From Eledone cirrhosa (lineage: Eukaryota), in the NCBI GenBank assembly GCA_964016885.1, contig CAXHJY010001331.1, positions 1 to 50,063 on the forward strand: 50,063 nucleotides of DNA. Reading direction: 5' to 3'. Below, piece after piece: positions 1 through 48,847 of the stretch. The number at the start of each line of letters is the position of its first letter. Positions within the stretch are counted from its first letter, which is position 1. The notes under the pieces are model-generated. The model did no database searches, was not told where the DNA came from, and worked only from the letters and a program-made list of their open reading frames with translations. The position numbers and the translations under genes are program-made.

Positions 1-1102
1 TACACATATATATATATATATATACATATACATATACATATATATATACATATATATATATACATATATACATATATATAGTATATATATATATATACAT
101 ATACATATACATTATATATATACATATATATATATACATATATATAATATATATACATATACATATACATATATATATACATATATATATATACATATAT
201 ATATATATATATCATATATATATAATATATACATATATATATATATATACATATATATATATATATAATATATATATATACATATATAATATATACATAT
301 ATATATATATTATATATAATATATATATACACATATATATATACATATACATATATATATACATAATACAATATATATATAACATATATATATACATATA
401 TATATATACATATATATATACATATATATATACATATATATATATACTATATATAGTATACATATATATATATACATATATATATATATATACATATATA
501 TATATATATACATATATATATATATATATACATATATATATATATATACATATATATATATACATATATATATATACATATATATATATATACATATATA
601 TATATATACATATATATATATACATATATATATATATACATATATATATATACATATTATATATATAATATATATATAACATATATATACATATATATAA
701 ATACATATATATACATATATATATATATATATATATATACATATATATAATATATATATATATATATATATAATATATACATATATATATATATATACAT
801 ATATATATATATATATATATACATATATATATATATATATATATATACATATATATATATATATATATATATATACATATATATATATACATATATATAT
901 ATATATTACATATATATATATACATATATCATATATATAGGTACATATATATATATACATATATACATATATATATATATATATACACATATATATATAT
1001 ATACATATATATATATATATACACATATAATTATATATATATATATAATATATATATATATATATATATATATATATATATATTATACATATATATATAT
1101 AT
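1..1102. repeat. Degenerate (TA)n/(TATATAC)n microsatellite tract
   Basis: Near-pure TA dinucleotide with frequent T>C interruptions (tatatacatata). Confidence 0.97.
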
Positions 1103-1336
1103 ATTGTTATACTTTGGGAGGGTCATGTTGCCAATAATATATATATATATATATATATATACATTATATATACATATATACATATATATATATATACATA
1201 TGGCTGAAACAGGTAAAAGAGTAAGAGAGTATATATATATATATATATATATACACATTATATATATATATATATAGATACATATATATATATATACATA
1301 TATATATAATACATATATATATATATATATATATAT

Positions 1337-1616
1337 ATATACAATATTAATAAATGGAAACTATATTTATAAAACCATATTTATTTCATTATATATATTT
1401 CAAGGATACCAAGTTTACATTATGGTATGCCCTGATGGCCCCCCATAGACAACGGTCAATTTTTTAAAAGGGGTACGTCAATGTCTATTTATAAACTGTA
1501 TATATTGTATTTTGTCTGATGAAGGCATACCTTAATGTACTTGGTATCCTTGAAAATATATATAATGAAATAAATATGGTTTTATAAATATAGTTTAATT
1601 TATTAATATTGTATAT
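1337..1616. mobile_element. Penelope-like pseudo-LTR remnant in inverted arrangement, copy 1
   Basis: ~93-bp inverted arms (1337-1431 and 1524-1616) around a ~92-bp spacer; the right arm overlaps a hammerhead motif. Inverted pLTRs with hammerheads are typical of PLEs. Confidence 0.65.
1508..1572 (+). ncRNA. Minimal type-I hammerhead ribozyme motif, copy 1
   Basis: tattttgt-CTGATGA-aggcatacc/ggtatcctt-GAAA-atatatata-atgaaata. Stem I uses G-U pairs, stem II has one C-C mismatch, and there is an extra A after GAAA relative to copy 2. Confidence 0.65.
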
Positions 1617-1703
1617 CTACTCCAAATATTTGTCGAGTGCTTTATATCAGTTATAAAAATATTTGCTTTGTTGTATCCCAACAATTTAAATAAAACTTTT
1701 GCA

Positions 1704-4454
1704 TATATACATATATATATATACATATATATATATACATATATATATATACATATATATATATACATTATATATATATAACATATATATATATACATAT
1801 TATATATACATATATAATATACAGATATATATATAACATAATATATATACATATATATATATACATATATATAATATATATATACACATATATATATACA
1901 TATATATATATACATATATATATATATATATATATATACATATATATATATACATATACATATATATATATACATATACATATATATATATACATATACA
2001 TATATATATATACATATATATATATACATATATATATATACATATATATATATACATATATATATATACATATATATACTACATATATATACATATAATA
2101 TACATATATATATATACATATATATATATACATATATATATATACATATATATATATACATATATATATATACATATATATATATACATTATATATATAT
2201 ACATATATATATATACATATATATATATACATATATATATACATATATATCATATATATATATATACATATATATATACACATATATATACATATATATA
2301 TACATATATATATACATATATATATACATATATATATACATATATATATATATATATATACATATATATATATATATATACATATATATATATAGTATAC
2401 ATATATATATACATATATATATACATATATATATACATATATATATACATATATATATATATATATACATATATATATATATATATACATATATATATAC
2501 ATATATATATACATATATATATATATATATATACATTATATATATATATATATATACATATATATATACATATATATATATATACATATATATATTACAT
2601 ATATATATACATATATATGATATCATATATATATATATATATATACATATATATATATATTATATATACATATATATATATACATATATATACATATATA
2701 TACATATATATATACATATATATATACATATATATAACATATATATATATATATATACATATATATATACATATATATATATATACATATATATATACAT
2801 ATATATATACATATATATATACATATATATATACATATATATATACATATATATATACATATATATATATATATATATACATATATATATATATATATAC
2901 ATATATATACATATATATATATACACATATATACATATATATACATATATATAATATATATATATACACATATATACATATATATATACATATATATACA
3001 TATATATATACATATATATACATATATATATACATATATATATATACATATATATATATATATATATATACATATATATATACATATATATATACATATA
3101 TATATAACATATATATATACATATATATATACATATATATATACATATATATATACATATACATATATATATACATATATATATACATATATATATACAT
3201 ATATATATATATATACATATATATAATACATATATATATATACATATATATATACATATATATATACATATATATATACATATATATATATATACATATA
3301 TATATACATATATATATACATATATATATACATATATATATATACATATATATATATTATACATATATATATATATACATATATATATACATATATATAT
3401 ATACATATATATATATATATACATATATATATATACATATATATATATATACATATATATATATATATACATATATATATATATACATATATATATACAT
3501 ATATATATACATATATATATATACATATATATATATATATACATATATATATATATACATATATATATACATATATATATATATACATATATATATATAT
3601 ACATATATATATATACATACATATATATACATACATATATATATATACATATATATATATATATATACATATATATATACATATATATATATATATACAT
3701 ATATACATATATATATACATATATATATACATCATATATATATATACATATATATATATACTATATATATATATATATATATACACATATATATATACAT
3801 ATATATATATATATATATATATATACACATATATATATACATATATATATATATATATATACATATATATATATACATATATATATATATATATATACAT
3901 ATATATATACATATAATATATATATACATATATATATACATATATATATATATATATATATATATATACATATACATATATATATACATATATATATATA
4001 TATATATATATAAAAATATACATATATATATACATATATATATACATATACATATATATATACATATATATATACATATACATATATATATATACATATA
4101 TATATATATATATATACATATATATAATATACATATATATATATACACATATATATATACATATATATATATATATATACATATATATATACATATACAT
4201 ATATATATACATATATATATACATATATACATATATATATACATATATATATATATATACATATATATATACATATACATATATATATACATATATATAT
4301 ACATATATACATATATATATACATATATATATACATATATATATATACATATATATATATATATACATATATATATATATATACATATATATATATATAT
4401 ACATATATATATATACATATATATATATATATACATATATATATATATACATAT
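1704..4454. repeat. Degenerate (TA)n/(TATATAC)n microsatellite tract
   Basis: 2.7 kb of TA with C interruptions on the + strand. Confidence 0.97.
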
Positions 4455-4565
4455 ATTGTTATATTTGGGGAGGGTCATATTTGCGTAATATTGCCATAAT
4501 TAATAACAGACCACACTCACTGTTTGGTTGGTTTTCGCTTCTCGCTGTCTTTTATATATATATAT
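4455..4565. repeat. Dispersed repeat family fragment (possibly non-autonomous Helitron-like)
   Basis: attgttatatttgggagggtcat core shared with 1103, 5850 and 9149, and inverted at 4782; ends in ttttatatatata like the 9126-9308 copy. Confidence 0.55.
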
Positions 4566-45587: not shown

Positions 45588-46060
45588 TACATATATATTT
45601 ATATATACACATATATATATAGATACATATATATTTATATATACACATATATATATAGATACATATATATTTATATATACATATATATATATATATACAT
45701 ATATATATATATATATATACATATATATATACATAGATATATATATATATACATAGATATATATATATATATATATACATATATATATACATATATATTT
45801 ATATATATATACATATATAGATATTTATATATATATACATATATAGATATATATATATATATATACATATAAAGATATATATATATATATACATATATAG
45901 ATATATATATACATATATAGATATATACATACATATATAGATATATATATACATATATATATATATACATATATAGATATAGATATACATATATAGATAT
46001 ACATATACATATATACATATATATATATATATATACATATATATATACATATATATATAT
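45588..46060. repeat. TA microsatellite tract (tagatat variant)
   Basis: TA with C and tagata interruptions. Confidence 0.95.
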
Positions 46061-46552
46061 GCATAAAAAGGTGCAGAGCACTAGAAGTTGATGGAAACCG
46101 AGGAGTGGGGAGACCCAAGATGACCTGGGATGAGGTGATAAAAGCCGACCTTACCCAATTACACCTCTCAAAGACAATGACACACGACCGTGACTTCTGG
46201 CGTCACGCAGTAATACAGAGTACCCAACCTCAAATGGGTACATGCTGAAGCATATAAACAATATGCCCCCACACCCCCCACTGCAAGGTGGTCGTGGAGG
46301 TGCCACGGCAAAAAAGCACCCAGCCCACACTGTAAAGTGGACGTGTAGGCGCCACGAAAAAGCACCCAGCACTCACTGTAAATGAGGTTGGTGTTAGGAA
46401 GGGCATCCAGCTGTAGAAATCAAGCCAAATCAGTTCCTGTATGAGCAAGGCATGGTCAGCCGACCAGACACTGCACACAACAGGACAACCCGTCTAACCC
46501 ATGCTAGCGTGGAAGAACGGACGTAAAACGGTGATGATGATGATGATGATGG
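46061..46552 (+). mobile_element. RTE LINE 3' fragment, subfamily B
   Basis: Closely matches 26084-26562, including GRPKMTW coding, 3' UTR and (tga)n tail. Confidence 0.93.
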
Positions 46553-47880
46553 TATATATATATATATATACATATATATATACATATATATATACATATA
46601 TATATACATATATATATACATATATATATACATATACATATATACATATACATATATATATATACATATATATATATACATATATATATATACATATACA
46701 TATATATACATATATATATATATATATACATATATATATATACATATACATATATATACATATATATATATATATATACATATATATACATATATATATA
46801 TATACATATATATATATATATATACATATATATACATATATATATATATCATATATATATATACATATACATATATATATATACATATACATATATATAC
46901 ATATGCATATATATATATATACATATATATACATATATATATATATGCATATATATATATATACATATATACATATATATATATATATATATATATATAC
47001 ATATATACATATATATATACATATATATATATACATATATATATATATATATATACATATATATATACATATATATATATACATATTTATATATATATAT
47101 ATACATATATATATATACATATATATATATATATATATACATATATATATATACATATATATATATATATATATACATATATATATATACATATATATAT
47201 ATATATACATATATATATATATACATATATATATACATATATATATATATACATATATATATACATATATATATACATATATATATACATATATATATAT
47301 ACATATATATATATATACATATATATATACATATATATATATATACATATATATATATACATATATATATATATATATATACATATATATATACATATAT
47401 ATATATATACATATATACATATATATACATATATATATACATATATATATATACATATATATATATACATATATATATATATATACATATATATATATAT
47501 ATATATATACATATATATATATATATACATATATATATATATACATATATATATATATATATATATACATATATATATATATATATATATATATACATAT
47601 ATATATATATATACATATATATATATATACATATATATATATATACATATATATATATATATATATATACATATATATATATATATATATATACATATAT
47701 ATATATATACATATATATATATACATATATATATATATATATATATACATATATATATATATACATACATATATATATATATATATACATATATATATAT
47801 ATATACATACATATATATATATATATATACATATATATATATATATATACATACATATATATATATATATATACATATAT
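46553..47880. repeat. TA microsatellite tract
   Basis: TA with C interruptions on +. Confidence 0.96.
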
Positions 47881-48388
47881 ATCATCATCATCATCATCAT
47901 CATCAACGTTTAACGTCCGTGTTCCACGCTTGCATGGGTTTGGACGGGGGTAGTCCCACTTGAGGCAAGAGTGATTGTCTTGCTCGCATAGGACTGTCTG
48001 GCAGGTTTTCTACAGTTGGATGCCCTTCCTAACACCAACCACATTTACAGTGTGGGTCTGGGAGGTTTTTACCGTGTTGCCTACACGGCCACATTACAGC
48101 GTGGACTGTGTGTTTTTTTGTCGTGACACCTACACGATCTCGTTTGTTTCGGCCTGGATGGCGCGGCACCAACATAACTTTACATGGAACGGGGTGGTGT
48201 GGATGGGGTGGGGGTGGTTGCGGGACGGGGTGTAGTTTGTTAGAGATGCCTACTGGCAAGGCGGGTCTTCTCTGTTACTGAGTACCGCCAAAGGTCACGG
48301 TCCAGTGACATTGTCTTGGAGAGGTGTAAGTGTGTGAGGTCGGAGTTTATCAGCTCATCCCATGTTTTTCTAGGTCTGCCTATTCCGT
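47881..48388 (-). mobile_element. RTE LINE 3' fragment, subfamily A
   Basis: [17 protein letters not shown]...RLASRHL*, 3' UTR and (atc)8 on +; reverse-complement match to 40438-40930. Confidence 0.93.
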
Positions 48389-48847
48389 ATATATATATAT
48401 ATATACATACATACATATATACATATATATATATATACATATATATATATACATATATATATATATACATACATATATATATATATATACATATATATAT
48501 ATATATACATATATATATATATATATATATATATACATACATATATATATACATACATATATATATATATATATATATACATACATATATATATACATAC
48601 ATATATATATACATATATATATACATACATATATATATACATATACATATATATATACATATATATATATACATATATATACATACATATATATATATAT
48701 ACATACATATATATATACATATATATATATATATACATATATATATATACATATATATATATATATATATATACATACATATATATATATATATACATAC
48801 ATATATATACATATACATATATATACATATACATATATATACATATA
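48389..48847. repeat. TA/TACA microsatellite tract
   Basis: TA with tacataca variants. Confidence 0.95.

Follow-up and report, generated by a model that had tools for sequence, protein, structure and literature searches.

Why should a repeat that reads the same on both strands be interrupted almost always on one of them? The question is raised by the window analysed here, the whole 50,063-nucleotide stretch of contig CAXHJY010001331.1 from Eledone cirrhosa, about half of which consists of TA tracts interrupted by C on the plus strand, (TA)nCA, and separated by retroelements. Tracts were defined as runs of at least 40 bp, which gave 23 tracts with a total length of 24,265 bp between positions 4 and 48,848. 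A sequence-only reading of this DNA had noticed that nearly all long tracts carry C on the plus strand and had offered three kinds of explanation: one ancestral polarised tract split by insertions, strand-asymmetric mutation, and (UA)n RNA that was either edited by ADAR and written back or added by the reverse transcriptase (RT) of a Penelope-like element (PLE). Here, we report that the polarity is genuine, that the interruptions were multiplied by duplication, and that the 23 tracts are probably pieces of one oriented (TA)nCA array cut up by insertions and segmental duplications.

Polarity of the TA tracts

In the window as a whole, TATACATA occurs 1,532 times and TATGTATA 32 times. A phase-aware count inside the 23 tracts gave 1,706 T>C interruptions (TACAT) versus 49 A>G interruptions (ATGTA), and C exceeds G on the plus strand in all 23, which bears out the excess of C and the rarity of its mirror noticed earlier. 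The tracts consist of asymmetric units arranged head to tail in a single orientation, as in an oriented tandem array; in the rest of the window TACAT and ATGTA number 43 and 62. Rarer interruptions in the tracts comprise T>G (35, versus 6 A>C) and T>A (6, versus 13 A>T). Uninterrupted TA runs are short, with a median of 11 bp and a length of at least 40 bp in eight of 1,531. The 23 tracts are not independent, yet when those with shared flanks were grouped by us into about 10 lineages a sign test still gave p of about 0.002, and a common cause is therefore needed. Reverse polarity is found in a degenerate TG/TA-rich spacer at 31,126-31,523 (TACAT 1, ATGTA 9). A degenerate TG/TA-rich stretch with G on the plus strand also lies inside another spacer, at 7622-7660.

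The C-on-plus polarity is genuine, and the C interruptions are very likely real sequence, with a small share of artefact or ascertainment remaining. An effect of sequencing or assembly could take the form of strand-dependent base-calling of (TA)n, or of a loss of hairpin-prone tracts from long reads that favours co-polar assembly. Such an effect would fit the single-base indel noise in the left half of the window (up to 16 per kb in tracts) and the frameshifted open reading frames (ORFs), as well as a satellite study whose available part gives strand-biased Oxford Nanopore miscalls in 11 of 487 satellites and under-sequencing of hairpin-forming AT satellites (10.64898/2026.07.13.738322). It is nevertheless very unlikely as the source of the pattern: the C pattern of a duplicated unit at 1105 is repeated in its copy at 5852, C density does not follow indel noise (Spearman rho -0.27, p 0.29, 17 tracts), each tract has its own spacing signature, and the opposite-polarity spacer was kept in the assembly.

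Spacing of the interruptions

The distance between C interruptions peaks at 10-14 bp and follows no geometric law (chi2 1,127), and its distribution varies among tracts (chi2 508, df 72). Because mutation, editing or miscalls would each give geometric spacing, the interruptions are unlike independent point events. Recurrent words of four spacing tokens stand above shuffled orders in nine of the 13 tracts tested, the other four being without them. Between the tracts at 11041-13357 and 14242-18413, 53 of 76 aligned spacing tokens are exactly identical (z 40 against shuffles), and the tracts beginning at 4 and 4863 have a common spacing word beside the duplicated unit (z 11); the spread of variants by local duplication into higher-order words is again that of an oriented tandem array. 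Over all tracts the modal spacing is 12 bp; spacings of 8 bp, of which there are 90, are underrepresented compared with those of 6 bp (192) or 10 bp (251).

The minority G interruptions were amplified as well. Forty-four of the 49 belong to a single motif (TACATGTATATGT) in two homologous tracts, where it was amplified more than 20-fold. Read on the other strand, this motif is identical to a common C word present in 137 copies; it also agrees with the sequence at the left boundary of the TA run that lies in the pseudo-long terminal repeat (pLTR) of PLE2, one of the PLEs listed below. The 49 G's thus reduce to about four or five origins, comparable to other rare variants. The C interruptions, too, were multiplied via duplication and did not arise singly. 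Since the spacing is non-geometric, tract-specific and word-repeating, and since the G motif was amplified in the same way, the 35:1 ratio reflects the copying of a founder unit and not 1,700 asymmetric events.

Elements between the tracts

The spacers consist for the most part of retroelement pieces: two minus-strand ORF-bearing PLEs, six RTE-like copies of long interspersed nuclear elements (LINEs; four on the plus strand and two on the minus strand), two CR1-like fragments (one each way), a minus-strand Tx1-like LINE and a piece resembling a short interspersed nuclear element. LINE clade labels (RTE-, CR1-, Tx1-like) were assigned from domains, tails and translation. The features are as follows.

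4-9093, plus: left group of (TA)nCA tracts (4-1104, 1703-4456, 4608-4783, 4863-5851, 6467-7621, 8154-9093 and four short ones), with PLE end fragments between them
1105-1702 and 5852-6466, plus: two copies of a duplicated unit (blastn, 96.7-100%)
7622-8153, minus: spacer with a fold-back (8138-8199) where it meets the tract, and with a minus-strand hammerhead-like core (7783-7804)
9094-10463, minus: PLE1, 5'-truncated, with a C-terminal ORF, a CX4CxxC linker, a GIY-YIG-like motif and a hammerhead-like core at 9318-9346
11041-13334, plus: TA tract with one flank of the PLE2 pLTR TA run on either side (flank motifs at 11029 and 13335) and with the G motif
13358-14241, minus: partial tandem copies of the PLE2 pLTR, with a hammerhead-like core at 13500-13524 and an internal TA run
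14242-18413, plus: 4.2-kb TA tract with the PLE2 5' junction on one side and the PLE2 3' end on the other
18416-21050, minus: PLE2, with pLTR and a broken RT and GIY-YIG ORF (from translation)
21051-23303, plus: RTE-like copy A, 86% to copies B and C
23304-24691, minus: CR1-like fragment (label from translation), 5' end at a tract
24692-24884, plus: 193-bp tract, 18 C to 0 G
24885-26561, plus: RTE-like copy D, which has a (GAT)n tail and is bordered by tract on both sides
26562-33196, plus: two large tracts (26562-31126 and 31524-33196), 557 C to 0 G, split by the opposite-polarity spacer with an edge fold-back at 31477-31531
33197-38400, minus: Tx1-like LINE whose 3' end lies at a tract, with ORF1, endonuclease, RT and zf-RVT
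38401-38578, plus: PLE-type fragment with a hammerhead-like core at 38482-38518
38579-38812, plus: 234-bp tract, 18 C to 0 G
38813-40929, plus: RTE-like copy C, tract on both sides, with RVT_1 and PHD
40930-42588, plus: tracts 40930-41319 and 41787-42588 around a 467-bp unit, the second copy of which lies at 42590-43052 (95.7%)
43193-45587, minus: RTE-like copy B, cut off at a tract on its 5' side, with a tail that lies in non-TA DNA
45588-48848, plus: tracts 45588-46060, 46553-47882 and 48388-48848, 154 C to 0 G, around RTE-like copies E and F
46061-46552, plus: RTE-like copy E, tracts on both sides
47883-48387, minus: RTE-like copy F, tracts on both sides
48849-50063, plus: CR1-like fragment with RVT_1, 5' end at a tract

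As the sequence-only reading had stated, the elements between the tracts lie in both orientations, and the polarity is therefore independent of LINE and PLE direction. RTE-like copies C, D, E and F are bounded by tract at both ends, three on the plus strand and one on the minus strand. Copies C, D and E, all on the plus strand, have tails (at 40929, 26561 and 46552) that are followed by tracts with C on the sense strand of the element; the tracts adjoining copy F, the Tx1-like element and the PLE ends have G on it. Several elements end abruptly at tract edges, and the host unit is not continued beyond copy B, suggesting that a deletion ended in the tract. Two segmental duplications also end at tracts (1105-1702/5852-6466 and 41320-41786/42590-43052). 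The unit at 1105-1702 combines 32 bp of a PLE1 end with two short TA runs, both with C, and with a hammerhead-like piece that has an inverted arm.

Changes private to single LINE copies were counted on the window strand as T>C versus A>G, in a blunt test that takes in changes predating insertion. The counts were 5:10 for copy B, 15:13 for C, 5:18 for A, 37:61 for D and 1:2 for F, with 1:1, 1:2, 0:0 and 0:3 in four further small comparisons; by this test no window-strand T>C excess was found in the RTE-like copies.

As noticed earlier, the minus strand carries both of the PLEs with ORFs, and one of them, PLE2, has a TA run in its pLTR (at 13,765 and 18,528). RT and GIY-YIG motifs can be read in the translations of the PLE ORFs, which are broken or truncated. 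The best protein match of PLE1 is from Octopus bimaculoides (56%), and a profile search with its truncated ORF gave no Pfam GIY-YIG match; for PLE2, with its broken ORF, PF01541 was matched without reaching the cut-off (E 0.0034), and the named protein matches are from Octopus vulgaris and Argonauta. The pLTRs are arranged in partial tandem (13530-14225, 18415-18771) and inverted (4784-4837), as in endonuclease-bearing (EN+) PLEs. Hammerhead-like cores with a stem were recognised by motif scan and folding at 1,516, 6,281 and 38,482 on the plus strand and at 7,783, 9,318 and 13,500 on the minus strand, with no Rfam match at gathering score in the window; one further match to the pattern, the seventh, lies within a CR1-like fragment at 23,846 and was treated as chance. 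A subtelomeric reading, with endonuclease-deficient (EN-) telomere-attached PLEs such as Athena and Coprina, was rejected because GIY-YIG-like motifs are present, in keeping with the lack of tandem TTAGGG within the window.

Sequencing reads were taken from the organism with the best DNA share (0.41), possibly a relative and not the source itself, and four of 13 runs were compared with positions 13365-13865. The PLE2 pLTR belongs to a high-copy family, with matches in 4,667 contigs and 25,881-30,018 reads per restriction-site-associated DNA (RAD) run over these positions, 13702-13865 being skipped as repeat. The loose ends of reads at the main end, 13605, are mixed AT-rich sequence (agreement 0.34-0.35), those at repeats having been dropped. 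Many opposite-strand joints within the PLE2 pLTR were seen in reads over 13365-13700. In the window a different end is used, 13654, some 50 bp away from the main read end, which is reminiscent of the two-site PLE tail.

Further features of the spacers concern their origin and structure. The duplicated segments 1344-1702 and 6108-6466, located between tracts, are non-coding, have a plus-strand hammerhead-like core and a 79% inverted arm, and are possibly a non-autonomous PLE or a retrozyme-like piece. The 467-bp unit (41320-41786; 42590-43192) presumably resembles a LINE 5' untranslated region. Short perfect fold-backs with non-TA arms occur at 8138-8199, 31477-31531, 13803-13847, 18568-18612 and 33331-33402, three of six being at most 20 bp from a tract edge; they may be scars of snap-back repair or inverted PLE junctions. 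The RTE-like ORF (43810-45798, minus; 38812-39990, plus) has a PHD-finger-like domain immediately after the RT. A search with the RTE-tail pattern matched no viral contigs and six short metagenome contigs, none with TA tracts, and a search with the polar-tract pattern matched no viral contigs. According to the available part of PMC13282606, the kinds of retroelement named at the head of this section are all recently active in O. vulgaris.

Origin of the polarity

It is well established that asymmetric units in head-to-tail order, when amplified by slippage and unequal exchange, retain one direction. A C-bearing unit is no longer strand-symmetric and therefore acts like any oriented satellite. 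Under the reading that we favour, a founder unit with C (about TA5-7 plus CA) would have grown head to tail through local duplication, while slippage, unequal exchange and break repair between direct copies would have multiplied the unit and preserved its direction. Mirror variants would be newly formed only at the rate of point mutation or as tiny inversions. Retroelements would then have inserted into the array, leaving the direction of the tracts unchanged. Shared descent is the simplest cause of a constant direction over 49 kb. The sequence shows the polarity, the non-random spacing, the duplication of tract segments, the two orientations of the elements and the lack of a T>C excess in the LINEs; that all tracts go back to a single ancestor, in what order the events took place and by which pathway breaks were repaired is our inference. 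Of the explanations offered by the sequence-only reading, the splitting of an ancestral polarised tract fits best, provided that local and segmental duplication of C units is added to it.

A toy model of neutral growth was run 60 times at each of three mutation rates. From a seed with one C, 47 and 50 of the 60 runs at the two low rates reached an interruption density of at least 5% with at least 95% in one direction, whereas pure-TA seeds gave no such array at any of the three rates. Several results weigh against descent from a single array. At the highest mutation rate the seeded model, which was not fitted to the data, succeeded in one of 60 runs. The edges of tracts that face each other are more alike than in random orders, at a weak p of 0.058-0.089 for all 17 long tracts, and the continuity is also weak among the right-hand nine, a subset chosen by us (p 0.069, 0.018 and 0.022). 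Many neighbouring tracts are mid-table in edge similarity, the facing edges of 40930-41319 and 41787-42588 ranking first of 16, and clear shared spacing words occur in only two tract pairs. In addition, three spacers (7622-8153, 31127-31523 and 41320-41786) are only partly assigned to elements.

The loss of inverted tracts may help to maintain the polarity. Over 12 segments, the predicted DNA hairpin energy per 200 nt was -33.9 kcal/mol for the C strand, -41.3 for the G strand, about -59 for the same interruptions set in mixed polarity and -67.5 for pure TA; summed over both strands, it was -75 for one-way interruptions, -118 for mixed and -135 for pure TA. One-way interruptions would thus roughly halve predicted hairpin stability. 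If the tracts arose in part independently, those tracts or variants with the opposite polarity would form long, near-perfect inverted repeats with their neighbours, break and be deleted, so that co-oriented domains remain. Such purging is plausible because both TA cruciform breakage with microhomology-mediated end joining (MMEJ) and the depletion of inverted Alu pairs have been published: the available part of PMC13645644 describes MMEJ repair of broken TA cruciforms with short duplications, and that of PMC3215922 a deficit of inverted Alu pairs that extends to distances of 350 kb. The greater predicted stability of mixed and pure TA hairpins, the shortness of perfect TA runs and the truncation of several elements at tract edges are all in its favour. 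However, the folding energies are predictions and no demonstration of selection, the G-bearing motif was amplified inside two tracts, short fold-backs persist at tract edges, and neighbouring satellite blocks of opposite orientation occur in Drosophila according to the available part of 10.64898/2026.07.13.738322. Exclusion is unlikely to be the cause, and it could also act on top of descent from one array. A wider proposal, which we consider doubtful, is that domains of tens of kilobases in octopods force independently arisen TA tracts to one polarity through cruciform defusal and mirror deletion, with a founder unit that, like its direction, may come from a Penelope pLTR TA run copied over and over by the PLE RT in the manner of telomerase.

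Seeding of the tracts by the PLE2 pLTR TA run, which has a CATAC end on the complementary DNA (cDNA) strand, would proceed by DNA slippage or telomerase-like RT copying and make the polarity track the PLE cDNA strand. The tract at 11041-13334 lies exactly between both flanks of this run, 23 of the 26 in-tract copies of CATGTATA, which matches its left boundary, are in the two tracts adjoining the pLTR junction, a CA-rich stretch inside the pLTR has the same polarity, and both ORF-bearing PLEs share a strand. A weak form of the earlier suggestion of a PLE RT origin survives for two tracts, 11041-13334 and 14242-18413, which may have grown from PLE2's own TA run. It is not readily applied to the C-polar tracts that adjoin plus-strand hammerhead-like PLE pieces (1516/6281, 38482) or to the nine tracts right of 24 kb, which have no adjacent PLE2 sequence; a micro-inversion explains the G motif equally well, and the available part of PMC11167929 describes no reiterative synthesis, so that seeding by PLE2 is quite improbable as a general cause. 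A transcription- or replication-linked A>G asymmetry over the whole window predicts a polarity independent of element direction, as observed, and agrees with the excess of T>G over its mirror, which C>G could also produce. The same bias is not found in flanking non-repeat DNA, neither in the non-tract counts nor, by the blunt test, in the LINE copies, and the spacing is unlike independent hits; the asymmetry proposed earlier is accordingly unsupported and highly improbable. Octopods are known for heavy RNA editing, and the named protein relatives point to this group; moreover, the G-strand RNA is predicted to fold like pure UA (-106.9 versus -107.9), a plausible double-stranded RNA. Even so, ADAR editing of (UA)n RNA written back by a retroelement RT is scarcely credible. 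Hyper-edited retrocopies would carry A>G on the transcribed strand of the element, whereas the tracts after the three plus-strand LINE tails carry C there and only others G; the spacing is periodic and duplicated, and the LINE bodies show no window-polar excess.

Relation to known systems

Like oriented satellites and compound microsatellites, the tracts are built from asymmetric units running in one direction; unlike them, the unit varies in length (TA5-7CA) and the direction spans 23 tracts over 49 kb interleaved with elements. AT-rich satellites are imperfect, not perfect, inverted repeats in the available part of 10.64898/2026.07.13.738322. A preference for (TA)n or AT-rich targets is described for PLEs (PMC8557442; PMC11167929) and TA targeting for the Mutator family MuTAnT (PMC4486113), again in the parts available. 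The locus resembles the Naiad/Neptune PLEs (PMC8557442), Poseidon PAc (PMC11167929) and MuTAnT (PMC4486113) as described in those parts in that its elements are inserted in (TA)n or AT-rich sequence, its pLTRs are inverted or in partial tandem, hammerhead-like motifs are present and no target-site duplication is visible. It differs in having four element kinds in one array, and the available parts of these accounts do not treat the polarity of the target tract. With Alu pair exclusion, as given in the available part of PMC3215922, it shares an excess of direct over inverted neighbours, for which deletion of inverted pairs is the cause proposed there; that effect is a partial depression for 300-bp SINEs, whereas the pattern here is completely one-way, in microsatellite variants and at one locus. 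Fragile TA repeats repaired by MMEJ (PMC13645644, available part) are likewise sites of breakage and rearrangement with short duplications, but they are uninterrupted runs in extrachromosomal DNA (ecDNA) of human cancer, and the present tracts are interrupted and known from sequence only. Among its top-ranked results, a literature search found none that dealt with the polarity of interrupted TA arrays across several tracts, with most subscription papers outside its coverage.

Implications

Most likely, the polarity pattern would be ordinary, each of its ingredients being already known, and no sign of editing write-back. If the polarity were to span unrelated tracts, it would explain how kilobases of cruciform-prone TA are tolerated, and inverted-pair exclusion would then hold for microsatellite variants as well as for SINEs; if PLE flanks were polar relative to the element, this would point to telomerase-like repeat synthesis by the PLE RT. 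If the tracts are instead pieces of one oriented array, the locus would be an instructive but ordinary one, in which a TA-rich array receives insertions of several retroelement families and a long-range strand signal is heritable by duplication without any mutational asymmetry.

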